Below the pieces are notes generated by a model. It was not told where the DNA came from. It saw nothing but the letters and a program-made list of their open reading frames with translations, and made no database searches. The translations under genes and the position numbers were made by a program. DNA of 28,031 bases. Source: a virus. Lineage: Duplodnaviria; Heunggongvirae; Uroviricota; Caudoviricetes. Each line of letters begins with the position of its first letter. Within the stretch, counting starts at the first letter, position 1. Positions 1,931 through 6,166 of the stretch are shown piece by piece. The stretch lies in IMG/VR virus record IMGVR_UViG_2740892212_000023; one strand, written 5' to 3'.

Positions 1931-2115
1931 ACGCCACAATTCAAACGATACCAGAGCTTCTTATCCAGACACGAGGCAATCAGACCGAAGTGGCGAGGAT
2001 GCTTTCCTGTGCAAGAGGAACAGTGCTCAAGTACAACCGAGACAGCAAAGGCGAGCGTCACGTAATAGTTAACGGCGTCCTGATGGTCAAACAGGGCAAG
2101 AGGGGAAGACGATGA
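1927..2115 (+). CDS. ninH: NinH protein
   Basis: 62-aa product …TIPELLIQTRGNQTEVARMLSCARGTVLKYNRD… resembles lambda NinH (helix-turn-helix-like). Confidence 0.75.
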   Translation: MNATIQTIPELLIQTRGNQTEVARMLSCARGTVLKYNRDSKGERHVIVNGVLMVKQGKRGRR

Positions 2116-2735
2116 GACTCGAAAGCGTAGCTAAATTTCATTCGCCAAAAAGCCCGATGATGAGCGACTCACCACGGGCTACGGCTTCTGACTCTCTTTC
2201 CGGTACTGATGTGATGGCTGCTATGGGGATGGCGCAATCACAAGCCGGATTCGGAATGGCTGCATTCTGCGGTAAGCATGAACTCAGCCAGAACGACAAA
2301 CAAAAGGCTATCAACTATCTGATGCAATTTGCACACAAGGTATCGGGGAAATACCGTGGTGTGGCAAAGCTTGAAGGAAATACTAAGGCAAAGGTACTGC
2401 AAGTGCTCGCAACATTCGCTTATGCGGATTATTGCCGTAGTGCCGCGACGCCGGGCGCAAGATGCAGAGATTGCCACGGTACAGGTCGGGCGGTTGATAT
2501 TGCCAAAACAGAGCAGTGGGGGAGAGTTGTTGAGAAAGAGTGCGGAAGATGCAAAGGTGTCGGCTATTCAAGAATGCCAGCAAGCGCCGCATATCGCGCT
2601 GTAACGATGCTAATCCCAAACCTTACTCAACCCACCTGGTCACGCACTGTTAAGCCTCTGTATGACGCTCTGGTGGTGCAATGCCACAAAGAAGAGTCAA
2701 TCGCAGACAACATTTTGAATGCGGTCACACGTTAG
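2112..2735 (+). CDS. Q: Late-gene antiterminator Q (lambda-type)
   Basis: 207-aa product that I recognise as essentially identical to lambda Q (MRLESVAKFHSPKSPMMSDSP…CRDCHGTGRAVD…CGRCKGVGYS…). Followed by the lambda pR' promoter sequence. Confidence 0.95.
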   Translation: MRLESVAKFHSPKSPMMSDSPRATASDSLSGTDVMAAMGMAQSQAGFGMAAFCGKHELSQNDKQKAINYLMQFAHKVSGKYRGVAKLEGNTKAKVLQVLATFAYADYCRSAATPGARCRDCHGTGRAVDIAKTEQWGRVVEKECGRCKGVGYSRMPASAAYRAVTMLIPNLTQPTWSRTVKPLYDALVVQCHKEESIADNILNAVTR

Positions 2736-2777
2736 CAGCATGATTGCCACGGATGGCAACATATTAACGGCATGATA

Positions 2778-2818
2778 TTGACTTATTGAATAAAATTGGG
2801 TAAATTTGACTCAAGAAT
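2778..2818 (+). promoter_or_regulatory. Late promoter pR' with qut-like initial transcribed region
   Basis: -35 TTGACT (2778-2783), 17-bp spacer, -10 TAAATT (2801-2806), matching lambda pR' as I recall it. The predicted +1 to +6 segment is AAGAAT (lambda: AACGAT), so a -10-like pause element is retained although the downstream sequence is new. Confidence 0.75.
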
Positions 2819-2877
2819 GGCAGATTTATATCCGTTCACATTCTTTCAGTTTTTACCCACCTCATCTTTAAGTTCTA

Positions 2878-2990
2878 AGCGCACTGACATGCGCATCATA
2901 AACTCGAGAGCACATAGGAATAGAGCCTGAGAAATATCGCTTTTGGCGACTTCTCTCGTGGTGATATTTCTATGTCAGCAGGCTCTAATA
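2878..2990 (+). repeat. Copy A of a duplicated ~110-nt leader element with conserved interleaved inverted repeats
   Basis: Shares the blocks AGCGCA…GCGCAT…CGAGAGC…GAGCCTGAGAAAT…GGCGAC.TCTCTCG…TTTCT.TG…CAGGCTC with 5518-5624. Lies directly upstream of the HNH gene start. Confidence 0.65.
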
Positions 2991-3006
2991 TCTATGTGGT
3001 TCGCCT

Positions 3007-3497
3007 ATGTTAAAACGTGAAGATGCATTGAGACTTTTTAATTACAATCCAGATACTGGAATTCTTACATGGAAGAATCCACCTCGGTCTTCTAGATTTA
3101 TCTATGGCGCTGTTGCTGGCTATAAACAAATGGATATCTGCAGGTAAAACTTTATGGAATGCGGCTATATGTCCATAGAATTGCATGGCTGATGGTTTAC
3201 AATGATTGGCCAACCGATGTGATTGACTATATTAATGGTGATAGGTCTGATAACCGGATAGCCAATCTTCGTGTTGTTACTAACACTCAAAACTCATGGA
3301 ACAGCAAGATGAGGAAAAACAATTCATCTGGTGTGAAGGGGGTGACTTTTAATTCTGCTGCAAACAAGTGGGTTGGAAGAATTAGGGTCAATGGTAAAAG
3401 GATTCATGTAGGGTGTTTTGACGATATCGAGGAGGCGAGAAAGGCAATGGAAAATGCCAGGATAAAATATCATGGTGAATTCTCCAGTATGGGATAG
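3007..3497 (+). pseudogene. HNH (HNH_3-type) homing endonuclease with C-terminal AP2 domain, interrupted by an apparent -1 frameshift
   Basis: N-terminal part in frame 1 (3007..3147: MLKREDALRLFNYNPDTGILTWKN…AVAGYKQMDICR*). The remainder is in frame 3 from 3126 (TNGYLQVKLYGMRLYVHRIAWLMVYNDWP…IDYINGDRSDNRIANLR…GVKGVTF…KWVGRIRVNGKRIHVGCFDDIEEA…YHGEF, to 3497). The frames switch inside the A-run at 3128-3130. The HNH signature reads DYINGD where the family normally has DHINGD. Confidence 0.7.
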
Positions 3498-3628
3498 ATG
3501 GGTTAATTCGCTCGTTGTGGTAGTGAGATGAAAAGAGGCGGCGCTTACTACCGATTCCGCCTAGTTGGTCACTTCGACGTATCGTCTGGAACTCCAACCA
3601 TCGCAGGCTGAGAGGTCTGTAAAATGCA

Positions 3629-3689
3629 ATCCCGAAACAGTTCGCAGGTAATAGTTAGAGCCTGCATAACGGTTTCGGGATTTTTTATT
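3629..3689 (+). terminator. tR'-like intrinsic terminator (end of the lambda 6S-RNA-homologous segment 3501-3689)
   Basis: Sequence 3501-3689 matches the lambda 6S RNA body from memory. Hairpin ATCCCGAAAC…GGTTTCGGGA followed by a T-run (3681-3689). Confidence 0.75.
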
Positions 3690-3690
3690 T

Positions 3691-3765
3691 GGGTCAGTCG
3701 TATAAAGGTCATTACGGAAGGCTGTTAACCTTCTTATCGTGGTTCGAGTCCACGCTGTCCCGCCA
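3691..3765 (+). tRNA. Candidate tRNA-Asn (anticodon GTT), possibly degenerate
   Basis: Hand-folded cloverleaf: acceptor GGGTCAG/CTGTCCC (one T·T mismatch), anticodon stem GAAGG/CCTTC with loop CTGTTAA, T-arm CGTGG-TTCGAGT-CCACG, discriminator G and encoded CCA. The D-stem is weak. Confidence 0.45.
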
Positions 3766-3770
3766 AATAT

Positions 3771-3846
3771 GCTGGTTTAGCTCCAATGGTAGAGCAGTCG
3801 CCTTGTAAGCGAATGGGTAGCGGTTCAAGTCCGTTAACCAGCACCA
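3771..3846 (+). tRNA. Candidate tRNA-Thr (anticodon TGT)
   Basis: Hand-folded cloverleaf: perfect 7-bp acceptor GCTGGTT/AACCAGC, D-arm GCTC-CAATGGTA-GAGC, anticodon loop CTTGTAA, T-arm AGCGG-TTCAAGT-CCGTT, discriminator A and encoded CCA. Confidence 0.65.
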
Positions 3847-4088
3847 TAACTGAGCCGTAGCCACTGGCTATCCTGAACTCATCAGTGATAGTTACGCTGC
3901 GGCCTTCTACACATGATCTTCGTGAAAGCGGGTGGCAGGAGGCTGCGCTAACAACCTCCTGCCGTTTTGCCCGTGCATATCGGTCACGAACAAATCTGAT
4001 TACTAAACACAGTAGCCTGGATTTGTTCTATCAGTAATCGACCTTATTCCTAATTAAATAGAGCAAATCCCCTTATTGGGGGTAAGAC

Positions 4089-4412
4089 ATGAAGATGCCA
4101 GAAAAACATGACCTGTTAGCCGCCATTCTCGCGGCAAAGGAACAAGGCATCGGGGCAATCCTTGCGTTTGCAATGGCGTACCTTCGCGGCAGGTATAATG
4201 GCGGTGCGTTTACAAAAACAGTAATCGACGCAACGATGTGCGCCATTATCGCCTGGTTCATTCGTGACCTTCTCGACTTCGCCGGACTAAGTAGCAATCT
4301 TGCTTATATAACGAGCGTGTTTATCGGCTACATCGGTACTGACTCGATTGGTTCGCTTATCAAACGCTTCGCTGCTAAAAAAGCCGGAGTAGAAGATGGT
4401 GGAAATCAATAA
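4089..4412 (+). CDS. S: Holin S (class I, lambda-type, with dual-start motif MKMPEK)
   Basis: 107-aa product that I recognise as essentially identical to lambda S. The Met1-Lys2-Met3 dual-start arrangement for antiholin/holin is preserved. Confidence 0.95.
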
Positions 4413-4872
4413 TCAACGTAAGGCGTTCCTCGATATGCTGGCGTGGTCAGAGGGAACTGATAACGGACGTCAGAAAACCAGAAATCATGGTTATGACGTC
4501 ATTGTTGGCGGAGAGCTATTCACTGATTACTCCGATCACCCTCGCAAACTTGTCACGCTAAACCCAAAACTCAAATCAACAGCCGCCGGACGTTACCAGC
4601 TTCTTTCCCGTTGGTGGGATGCCTATCGTAAGCAGCTTGGCCTGAAAGACTTCTCTCCGAAAAGCCAGGACGCTGTGGCATTGCAGCAGATTAAAGAACG
4701 TGGCGCTTTACCGATGATTGATCGTGGTGATATTCGTCAGGCTATCGACCGTTGCAGCAATATCTGGGCTTCGTTGCCGGGCGCTGGTTACGGTCAGTTC
4801 GAGCATAAGGCTGACAGCCTGATTGCAAAATTCAAAGAAGCGGGCGGAAAGGTCAGAGAGATTGAGGTATGA
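4396..4872 (+). CDS. R: Endolysin R (lambda-type lytic transglycosylase)
   Basis: 158-aa product matching lambda R from memory ([26 protein letters not shown]…). Overlaps the S stop. Confidence 0.95.
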
Positions 4873-5306
4873 GCAGAGTAACCGCGATTATCTCCGCTCT
4901 GGTTATCTGCATCATCGTCGGCCTGTCATGGGCTGTTAATCATTACCGTGATAACGCCATTGCCTACAAAGAGCAGCGCGATAAAGCCACATCCACAATC
5001 GCTGACATGCAGAAGCGTCAACGTGATGTAGCAGAACTCGACGCAAGATATACAAAGGAACTTGCTGATGCTAACGCGACTATCGAAAGTCTCCGTGCTG
5101 ATGTTTCTGCTGGGCGTAAGCGCCTGCAAGTCGCCGCCATCTGTGCAAAGTCAACGACCGGAGCCAGCAGCATGGGCGATGGAGAAAGCCCAAGACTTAC
5201 AGCAGATGCTGAACTCAATTATTACCGTCTCCGAAGTGGAATCGACAGGATAACCGCGCAGGTTAACTACCTGCAGGAATACATCAGGACGCAATGCCTT
5301 CGATGA
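4869..5306 (+). CDS. Rz: Spanin Rz (i-spanin); N-terminus lambda-like, remainder divergent
   Basis: 145 aa. The first ~30 residues ([17 protein letters not shown]…NHYRDNAI) match lambda Rz, after which the sequence diverges. N-terminal TM helix plus coiled-coil character. Confidence 0.85.
5062..5253 (+). CDS. Rz1: Spanin Rz1 (o-spanin lipoprotein) embedded in the +1 frame of Rz
   Basis: ORF wholly inside Rz in another frame. Signal-peptide-like N-terminus with lipobox-like LGVSAC and a Pro-rich mature region. The exact start is uncertain. Confidence 0.65.
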
Positions 5307-5479: not shown

Positions 5480-5505
5480 AGCCCCGCATTCGCGGGGCTT
5501 TTTAT
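5480..5505 (+). terminator. Rho-independent terminator downstream of the lysis cassette
   Basis: Hairpin AGCCCCGC-ATTC-GCGGGGCT followed by TTTTTAT. Confidence 0.7.
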
Positions 5506-5517
5506 ATCTTAATTTCA

Positions 5518-5624
5518 CAGCGCATCTCACGCGCATATTAACGAGAGCCTTTCAGTAAGCGAGCCTGAGAAATGCCGTTATAGGTGGCGACCTCTCTCGG
5601 GCGGCTTTTCTGTGAGACAGGCTC
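5518..5624 (+). repeat. Copy B of the duplicated leader element, upstream of rha
   Basis: Same conserved blocks in the same order as 2878-2990, lying between the post-lysis terminator and the rha start codon. Confidence 0.65.
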
Positions 5625-5647
5625 ACTTTCTAAAAGGTAAAGACGCT

Positions 5648-6166
5648 ATGAATCATCAATTGGCTAATCTCGATTTCCGGGACATGGTGGTTGTTTCTGG
5701 TGATCGCGTGATCACAACCTCCCGCAAGGTAGCAGCTTACTTCGACAAGCAGCATCACCACATCATTCAGAAAATCGAAAAGCTAGACTGTTCGGATGAA
5801 TTTCTAACCAGCAACTTTTCGCGGGTTACCTATGAACACAAGGGTAATCAGTATGTTGAATATGAAATTTCCAAAGACGGCGCGATGTACATCATCATGT
5901 CGTTTACCGGAAAAAAAGCTGCCGCCATCAAAGAGGCGTTTATCAAAGCATTTAATTGGATGCGTGACAGGCTGATGGAGATGGCTCACTCATACCAAAG
6001 AGAGCACAACGAGTTAATGCTGGAGTTCATGAAGGAAAAGGATGTTGCCAGTATGTCAGGACGCTTGCTGAACCGCTGGGGCAGGATCAAAAAACCGCAA
6101 CTCATAGCAAGAATCGAAAGGCTTGAGCAGCAGGCGCAAATATCGATCCCCGGACTGCCAAAGTGA
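5648..6166 (+). CDS. rha: Phage regulatory protein Rha (P22 orf201-like)
   Basis: Rha-family N-terminal motif (…VVVSGDRVITTSRKVAAYFDKQHHHIIQKIEKL…). ATG 5648 is preceded by AAAGG; the ORF track's GTG 5612 extension is probably not translated. Same position as rha in P22. Confidence 0.8.
   Translation: MNHQLANLDFRDMVVVSGDRVITTSRKVAAYFDKQHHHIIQKIEKLDCSDEFLTSNFSRVTYEHKGNQYVEYEISKDGAMYIIMSFTGKKAAAIKEAFIKAFNWMRDRLMEMAHSYQREHNELMLEFMKEKDVASMSGRLLNRWGRIKKPQLIARIERLEQQAQISIPGLPK

Follow-up and report, generated by a model that had tools for sequence, protein, structure and literature searches.

What lies between the late promoter pR' and the body of the 6S RNA in a lambdoid phage whose late transcript departs from that of lambda at its third nucleotide, and how did it come to be there? 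The question is raised by a viral DNA of 28,031 nucleotides (IMG/VR record IMGVR_UViG_2740892212_000023; this whole stretch is called the window below), which is part of a lambdoid (pro)phage. A preliminary description, made from the letters and open reading frames (ORFs) of this DNA, had placed a gene for an HNH-AP2 homing endonuclease at the start of the late transcript. We find that the extra block is a module of three parts, namely an alternative initial transcribed region, a conserved pseudoknotted RNA element and an ORF (Table 1), and that an HNH-AP2 cassette at the start of the late leader is a rare but recurrent variant. The explanation we prefer, with confidence somewhat better than even, is that the block represents a selfish, free-standing HNH-AP2 homing-endonuclease cassette in a state of decay, lodged in an alternative late-leader module. 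Free-standing genes for homing-type endonucleases of the HNH-AP2 kind are known in phages; the site is unusual and is unreported in the literature searched. That literature, from which most subscription journals are absent, yielded nothing on an HNH gene within the pR' leader or on the RNA element, which is weak evidence of novelty.

Alignment with the two references used for the junctions, lambda (NC_001416) and HK446, bears out the block as extra DNA, as the preliminary description had suggested. It substitutes for the single C at +3 of lambda and is 682 nt long in the window and 683 nt in intact copies. Positions 2736–2814 are identical to lambda, including the Q-binding element and the promoter hexamers (−35 TTGACT, 2778–2783; −10 TAAATT, 2801–2806), and colinearity with lambda and HK446 continues through TCAA, the last base of which, A2814, is +2 when +1 is placed at A2813 by homology with lambda. 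On the right, colinearity is back at G3497 (GATGGGTTAATTCGC, lambda +4 onward), and the string ATGGGTTAATTCGC begins at 3498. The earlier claims of colinearity up to about +3, of a resumption of lambda sequence and of a large insert were therefore right in essence, but the shared sequence ends at +2, it resumes at 3497 and not at 3501, and the insert falls short of the 690 bp or so that had been proposed. Alignment with lambda had also been proposed as a way to define the insertion junctions; as judged from these alignments, only the right one, at lambda +4, is sharp, and the left one falls within sequence shared with lambda. In a second pair of loci that differ by the module, L009 and the Salmonella phage SI8, the left junction lies immediately 3' of the −10 hexamer.

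The block is present in 16 of 5426 complete E. coli genomes, that is, in 16 of the 1465 that carry this Q-pR' region, and always at one site; it thus occupies 1.1% of lambda-type pR' loci. All 16 copies are intact and encode a protein of 163 amino acids (aa). IMG/VR holds 17 more, of which 11 are intact, two have the lesions of the window, two have a 327-nt deletion and two are cut by contig ends. The same cassette, which it had been suggested might be sought elsewhere, is accordingly found in other genomes, and its recurrence at one site in complete genomes and contigs rules out chance or an assembly artefact. The flanks of the carriers differ: downstream there is a tRNA pair in five of the 16 E. 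coli copies and lambda-like sequence in the other 11, and the nin regions upstream are of at least three kinds. What is seen is a presence/absence polymorphism at one site among close relatives. None of the 50,697 phage genome records in INPHARED has the block, and all 169 records that match its flanks are without it.

In the window the ORF is split into two frames, 3007–3147 (46 aa) and 3159–3497 (112 aa). Alignment with three block-bearing E. coli prophages identifies the frameshift as a 1-nt deletion, a run of three A (3124–3126) standing where intact copies have four. A C-to-T change moreover converts the catalytic His of the motif IDHING to Tyr (TAT, 3228–3230; IDYING in the window); IDHING is kept in all full-length copies other than the lesion carriers and in all diverged relatives. 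Because two IMG/VR contigs (L016 and L026) carry the same pair of lesions, and because the cluster of the 112-aa protein (P0005) has 12 members, the lesions are real and not read errors. On the evidence of the sequence, the frameshift and the His-to-Tyr change make the window copy a pseudogene from which no endonuclease would be produced. The gene does lie where it had been placed, between pR' and the 6S RNA with its terminator tR', as both alignment and Pfam show, but it is not the functional gene that was supposed. Its stop codon (TAG, 3495–3497) overlaps the lambda +4 junction.

The identity of the protein is clear at the level of family. Pfam HNH_3 scores 61.4 bits in an intact orthologue and 58.3 bits in the window fragment (cutoff 24.8), and AP2 (PF00847) is marginal at 33.8 and 34.3 bits (cutoff 33.3); matches to solved structures are also marginal (I-HmuI, 1u3e, E 0.66; plant AP2, 7wq5, E 0.003). 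The protein falls in phrog_99 (E 1e-76) and its PADLOC match is 'homing endonuclease'. Intact orthologues of 163 aa include WP_227913765.1 and WP_000919140.1; for a 112-aa protein of Citrobacter youngae (P0008) no genomic context is on record. The ORF is separate, is not fused to a host protein and lies outside any intron or intein. All intact relatives keep the DH..N..N motif, the ratio of nonsynonymous to synonymous substitution rates (dN/dS) is 0.08 between lineages (the sole unsaturated pair), and the protein is evidently under strong purifying selection in the intact lineages. HNH proteins also belong to some phage packaging machines (Kala et al. 2014, as cited in PMC12315714), and this one might be an accessory factor for DNA packaging of the terminase-adjacent HK97 gp74 type. 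The gene is not beside terminase genes, however, it has an AP2 DNA-binding domain of the sort typical of homing endonucleases, and 99% of prophages that are otherwise similar lack it, while in several it is inactivated; we reject a packaging role on position and dispensability and give it next to no credence.

Loss of the gene has gone further elsewhere. In two contigs (L012 and L019) the 327-nt deletion is in frame and removes the HNH domain. Leaders with no HNH gene at all are found as scars in three E. coli genomes and seven IMG/VR contigs, the 5' half of the RNA element being joined to the 3' arm of tR' at a repeated string, TAGAGCCTG, which occurs twice in the window, in the element (2921–2929) and in the tR' loop (3656–3664). 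These leaders look like deletions between the two repeats, events that would have taken away the HNH gene together with half of the element and the greater part of the 6S body. When IMG/VR was searched with the 16-mer GCGCACTGACATGCGC the matches were mainly unrelated and GC-rich; seven new relevant loci were obtained, all of them scars of the type seen in FDA943. From intact copies, through the frameshift with Tyr and the in-frame deletion, to deletion scars, the series traces the cycle of invasion, decay and loss that is typical of a homing-endonuclease gene (HEG).

Relatives of the protein at 85, 74, 65, 61 and 57% identity were traced to contigs, and the RNA element lies 5' of the gene in all five. 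The first four stand directly 3' of Q genes of differing types (207, 254, 273 and 276 aa, with 32–38% identity to lambda Q). The fifth (L174) follows a gene that is cut by the contig end and has no domain call; the encoded protein shares 64% identity with Q from L173, a locus of X. bovienii. Homologous modules after other Q types are those of L009, L010 and L173. The Xenorhabdus-like loci L173 and L174 have a short leader and a terminator and then the element and the HNH gene; in X. beddingii the element stands 5' of other genes. L173 and L174 are 64% identical in Q and 53% in the HNH protein, and the window and L173 are 32% identical in Q and 61% in the HNH protein; the two rankings disagree, and the two genes have therefore had partly separate histories.

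Phage SI8 has the nuclease-less allele of the L009 type of Q and promoter, with a lambda-like 6S leader starting at AACGATGGGTTAC right after the promoter, and the HEG-less alleles of both Q types begin AACGATGGGTTA. Two unrelated Q backgrounds thus offer, in these alignments, the same choice between a 6S-type leader and an alternative leader with element and HNH gene. In L009 the module replaces the 6S body, whereas in the window it stands ahead of a 6S body that lacks its first three bases. Throughout IMG/VR, GA rather than CG at +3/+4 is completely linked with the block, and no recombinants were found there, neither an AAGAAT leader fused directly to the 6S body nor an AACGAT start fused to the alternative leader.

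On another explanation, the block would be a mosaic late-leader module, one of two lambdoid alleles that are swapped by ordinary recombination at the conserved promoter, and its HNH-AP2 gene would be kept for a benefit to phage or lysogen (cutting of superinfecting phages, or regulation through AP2 as a DNA-binding domain) and not by self-propagation. Recombination in promoter DNA predicts a left boundary within sequence that the alleles share, which is what is found here, and one right after the −10, as in L009 and SI8. The low dN/dS, a position behind Q that is stable over four or five Q types, and the presence of the RNA element 5' of genes that encode no nuclease (Rha, KilA-N, an 80-aa ORF) likewise fit, and a promoter that is active in lysogens (PMC7547250) would suit an exclusion function expressed there. 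A benefit is harder to reconcile with the rarity of the block at lambda-type pR' loci, and its repeated, independent inactivation and loss argue against any that is sustained; the protein family, furthermore, is annotated as homing endonucleases, and one relative occupies another site of the element together with a diverged element of its own, which is a classic signature of intronless homing. We regard this explanation as rather unlikely. The relative in question is an HNH-AP2 protein of phage Dewey (L183, PQ850600.1, 920–1640), 40% identical and in the same PHROG, whose gene lies between Rz and a KilA/Rha-like gene. It has its own diverged copy of the element (P2 GAACCTTG/CAAGGTTC, pseudoknot CCAAGAA/TTCTTGG), and its ORF ends within the 3' end of the resident Rha-type element, the pattern that would be expected of a homing gene carrying a cleavage-resistant version of its own target.

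The order of events could also be the reverse, with the alternative leader, element, HNH gene and 6S body together as the older state, from which the common lambda leader arose by deletion and no insertion took place. Similar short strings do flank the block (AAGAATGG, 2813–2820; ATAGATGG, 3494–3501), the TAGAGCCTG scars are local examples of deletion between short repeats, and the arrangement is implied to be old by L008, in which the parts follow one another as in the window, the protein is 85% identical and the 6S body has diverged. Yet IMG/VR contains no instance of AAGAATGGGTTAATTCGC, the sequence that such a deletion should leave, and the CG of lambda at +3/+4 fits neither copy of the repeat. 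The 6S-type leader must itself be old and widespread, since it is found HEG-less from AACGATGGGTTA behind the unrelated Q and promoter type of SI8, and 1449 of the 1465 E. coli genomes with this Q-pR' region are without the block. An origin of the lambda leader by deletion seems to us improbable.

Our preferred explanation, a selfish homing cassette, can be set out as follows. In lysogens pR' is constitutively active, and transcription from it normally ends at tR' (PMC7547250). Between the two, the module would bring an initial region bearing AANNNT, a pseudoknotted leader RNA and a nuclease ORF. A simple terminator scan, which also overlooks tR' owing to its long loop, and folding revealed no credible terminator between +1 and the ORF; because of this and of the activity of pR' in lysogens, intact copies would be transcribed without Q, on a short pR' RNA lengthened from ∼194 to ∼877 nt. 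During lytic growth, under antitermination by Q, the late transcript would have the nuclease as its first ORF. It would cut HEG-less 6S-type leaders within AACGATGGGTTA, their first 12 nt, which are conserved across Q types, at about +3/+4, and the sharp right junction at lambda +4 may be the mark of that cut. Recombinational repair would then copy the cassette in, by homology on the Q side and by an illegitimate join on the other, and the HEG-bearing allele (AAGAATGGCAGA) would be immune to the nuclease. In the window the nuclease function has been lost, leaving a 682-nt passenger for the late transcript to read through. We infer homing itself from the distribution and the decay of the gene.

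Two candidate structures within the block were tried and rejected. A 5' hairpin at 2813–2845 is too weak for a terminator (−6.2 kcal/mol, z −1.7). Permissive Rfam scans of positions 2000–5000 gave no group I or group II intron and no other Rfam family, and the block was not taken for a group I intron or ribozyme, there being no Rfam match and no structured RNA 3' of the ORF.

Several points weigh against a homing cassette. The target site is a guess from the position of the junction and from conservation. No co-conversion tract could be discerned, the other flank polymorphisms being common to HEG-plus and HEG-less phages, and the ordinary homologous recombination of lambdoid mosaics could move the module with no nuclease activity. 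Two HEG-plus genomes, H45 and H46 (NZ_OZ040950.1 and NZ_CP196291.1), have a second lambda-type Q-pR' place; if this place is HEG-less and uncut, constitutive cleavage of such a target is unlikely. The Shine-Dalgarno sequence 5' of the ORF is weak (GUGG), and a terminator precedes the element and the HNH gene in the Xenorhabdus relatives, so that expression independent of Q is not general in the family. Finally, the block has been met only in prophages and IMG/VR contigs, with none in the phage records searched, and its carriers could be defective.

The module leaves the promoter and the Q-binding element unchanged and alters part of the qut region downstream of them. In lambda the pause-site consensus is T+14 N Y+16 G+17 (PMC9191641). 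Relative to the lambda qut site as given in that source, the window shares the −35, the Q-binding element, the −10, the key A(+2) and T(+6), and T+14; it differs in having GA for CG at +3/+4, GGC for GGG at +7 to +9, and A T for Y+16 G+17. From +1 to +6 it reads AAGAAT, which is nearer to the −10 consensus than the AACGAT of lambda. At +14 to +17 it reads TTAT against the TTCG of lambda, a departure from the consensus in which T+14 is kept and YG lost. Homologous leaders behind other Q types start with AANNNT too (AATGCT), and the pause inducer is therefore native to the module and not an accident of insertion. The preliminary description had rightly seen that a −10-like pause element is preserved, that the late transcript reads through an extra block ahead of the lysis genes (the block lying between pR' and tR' in the alignment) and that qut may be altered, which holds for its sequence; what failed was the idea that the first bases of an insert merely recreate the element, given the homologues at L009, L010 and L173. 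Since the module persists in many late regions that are otherwise intact, we expect that Q can still load through it.

The first 115 nt of the block are also found with no HNH gene, in RMDEC465 and in prophages of the FDA943 type. In the latter a 46-nt GC hairpin is inserted at the 3' end of the initial transcribed region. This insertion, a GC-rich hairpin followed by a U-rich run (CTCCCCGCCCTGTCGGGCGAGGGTTTACGGCGTTTTTCG), lies just 5' of the element, at the position of the terminator in Xenorhabdus-type leaders, and was observed in L007 (3060–3110), L038, L039, L040, L046, L047, L049 and L051.

The second part of the module is the structured RNA element, which consists of a hairpin (P1) and two stacked stems (P2 and P3) with a pseudoknot. 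Its fold has z-scores of −3.85 and −4.15. Across nine sequences from six lineages, 95% of cells are paired and five pairs show compensatory change; none of 500 shuffles reaches this covariation score, and when the 3' partners are slid by 1–3 columns at most 52% pair. The pseudoknot was tested without alignment, as both MAFFT (on HNH-linked and Rha-linked copies) and covariance-model alignments put its strands out of register. Where the 5' linker can pair perfectly with the loop of P3, the longest helix measures 6–7 bp in every one of the 21 distinct copies and lies in the same place, with eight different sequences among them (for example CGAGAG/CTCTCG, TCATGA/TCATGA, CCAAGAG/CTCTTGG and CCCCGAG/CTCGGGG). 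The element itself stays nearly invariant, a 23-mer being identical between E. coli and Xenorhabdus copies. When single sequences are folded (2875–2995 and 5516–5635), the favoured structure is nested and re-uses the U-rich 3' strand of P3, now paired to (C)AUAGGAAUA or CAGAAAG further upstream; by inspection, one Klebsiella copy does not support it. This structure competes with the pseudoknot that covariation supports, and may either represent a second conformation, as in a switch, or simply reflect repeats rich in A/U.

The window contains the element once more, in diverged form, ahead of a Rha-like gene (phrog_518). This second copy was matched, at 5516–5648, by a covariance model (R1) built solely from HNH-linked copies and without the pseudoknot (62.8 bits, E 4.5e-12). 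The Rha-linked variant is widespread: it occurs in 156 phage records, including HK620 and 73 Stx2a phages, extends to phages of Salmonella, Klebsiella, Enterobacter, Providencia and Actinobacillus, and is found in 952 of the 5426 complete E. coli genomes (∼18%), always without annotation. The element usually follows an intrinsic terminator and ends 15–25 nt before a start codon, and the genes downstream encode Rha, KilA-N, antirepressor-like or HNH proteins or an 80-aa ORF. In four permissive scans of Rfam 15 neither copy came near any gathering score. A metagenome scan with the palindromic gapped pattern TAGAGCCTG-N35-60-CAGGCTCTA returned 120 loci, all chance matches and none element-like. 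Our best guess at its role is that it acts in cis on translation, processing or stability of the message of the downstream accessory gene.

The tR' loop TTAGAGCCTGC (3655–3665) and the string GCAGGCTCTAA (2978–2988), which is the 3' arm of the element's outer stem, are complementary for 11 nt without a mismatch. The loop is partly similar to the 5' half of the element, which suggests a possible distant kinship of the element with 6S RNA at its 3' end.

A broader proposal would make the element central: it would be a leader RNA with a pseudoknot, so far undescribed, that serves accessory genes in the late regions of many lambdoid phages, Stx2a phages among them; the adjoining phrog_99 HNH-AP2 nucleases would be a homing lineage specialised on element and late-leader DNA; and the copy at pR' would be expressed in lysogens from the always-on promoter, and would cut and convert incoming HEG-less lambdoid phages where their late transcript begins. 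Taken whole, this is speculative and we hold it to be unlikely.

How does the module compare with known systems? Free-standing homing-endonuclease genes of phages include the seg and mob genes of T4, whose mode of spread is termed 'intronless homing'. The cassette resembles these as a small nuclease ORF between conserved sequences and outside an intron or intein, in its sporadic presence at one site among close relatives with decayed or deleted copies, and in a variant sequence at the presumed target in the nuclease-bearing allele. It differs in type (HNH-AP2 as opposed to the GIY-YIG or HNH type in T4), in that its homing is a presumed activity, and in that it resides in a temperate lambdoid prophage, at the initial transcribed region of the late promoter and not between structural or metabolic genes. 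With the homing and nicking endonucleases of the HNH_3 group (I-HmuI, PDB 1U3E) and with HNH-AP2 proteins (PF13392 with PF00847; phrog_99) it shares the Pfam domains and, in intact relatives, DH..N..N; the window copy departs from I-HmuI and its kin in its Tyr at the catalytic His and its frameshift, and similarity to the solved structure is marginal.

Among lambdoid accessory genes, the morons such as stx and tRNA genes lie between Q and the lysis genes. The block is like them in being accessory DNA of the Q-to-S interval that depends on late transcription, but they are 3' of tR' and it is 5' of tR', starting at +3 of the transcript. The put RNA of HK022, a cis-acting leader RNA that modifies RNA polymerase, consists of two stem-loops in early operons. 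It has in common with our element that a structured RNA lies near terminators in lambdoid transcripts, and differs from it in that the element is a hairpin with a pseudoknotted double stem directly 5' of start codons. The transcript may further be compared with two short RNAs made constitutively from pR' to tR', the 6S RNA of lambda and the small RNA StxS (PMC7547250). Promoter, terminator and the 6S body from +4 are the same, and the short transcript of the window is likewise predicted to end at tR' without Q; in contrast to theirs, it would have a different 5' end, a structured element, a predicted length of ∼876 rather than ∼194 nt and, in intact copies, a translatable ORF.

The surroundings of the block are those of a lambdoid late region (Table 1). 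The 3' end of Q is ∼98–99% identical in nucleotide sequence to lambda Q, a promoter scan finds a promoter-like site at the position of pR', and records of HK phages label the identical sequence PR'/Qut. The terminator tR' is intact (hairpin 3628–3682, U-run 3683–3688; −27.6 kcal/mol, z −5.9). A pair of tRNA genes begins 3 nt past its U-run, in place of ∼300 nt of lambda sequence; the identical pair is found in HK446, mEp506 and Kapi1, all without the block, and the lysis genes S, R and Rz (from the ORF list) lie downstream of it. Other features were observed 3' of the HNH gene in relatives. In L173 a tRNA-Phe overlaps the 3' end of the gene. Frames resembling a tmRNA tag (ANDDQFLAVA* and ANEEVYLAVA*) occur in L008 (about 1690–1740) and L010 (about 3775–3810); ARAGORN found no tmRNA in these two loci, and Rfam tmRNA matches were weak and below threshold.

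Table 1. Positions of the late-leader module, its parts and neighbouring features in the window.
Feature	Position	Strand	Basis or remarks
Extra block relative to lambda/HK446, 682 nt	2815..3496	+	two alignments
Alternative initial transcribed region	2815..2878	+	homologous diverged versions in L008, L009 and L010
Structured RNA element, copy 1	2879..2987	+	repeats, folding, covariation
P1 hairpin	2879–2894
Pseudoknot strands CGAGAG / CTCTCG	2905–2910 / 2953–2958		second strand inside the P3 loop
P2, TAGAGCCTG with CAGGCTCTA	2921–2929 / 2979–2987
P3, AGAAATATCGC with GTGATATTTCT	2930–2940 / 2961–2971		stacked with P2
HNH_3 + AP2 endonuclease pseudogene	3007..3497	+	ORF list, alignment, Pfam, phrog_99
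Q antiterminator gene, lambda type, 207 aa	2112..2735	+	ORF; Pfam Antiterm, 192 bits
Late promoter pR', with Q-binding element between hexamers	2778..2806	+	lambda alignment
+1 and sigma70-dependent pause inducer AAGAAT (+1 to +6)	2813..2818	+	sequence, alignment
6S RNA body, lambda type, from +4, with terminator tR'	3497..3688	+	alignment; inverted repeat; fold
tRNA-Asn(GTT)	3691–3765	+	ARAGORN; Rfam tRNA
tRNA-Thr(TGT)	3771–3846	+	ARAGORN; Rfam tRNA
Structured RNA element, second, diverged copy	5520..5624	+	after terminator 5480–5505, before Rha-like gene (ATG 5648)

These findings bear on the biology of lambdoid phages in several ways. A passenger of 0.7 kb is tolerated in the first bases of the pR' transcript, at which Q loads and which are the most conserved and most thoroughly studied piece of lambda regulatory DNA; these bases may even be a target for such a passenger. 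As a natural qut variant with a better −10-like element and with the YG of the pause site lost, the locus could be used to gauge what Q loading needs of the initial transcribed region. A by-product of larger value is the covariation-supported pseudoknotted RNA that hundreds of phages, Stx-converting ones among them, carry directly 5' of genes for Rha, KilA-N or HNH proteins. If the always-on pR' does express intact copies of the cassette, lysogens would contain a site-specific nuclease directed against competing lambdoid phages, and homing and exclusion would then both be achieved by one simple means.

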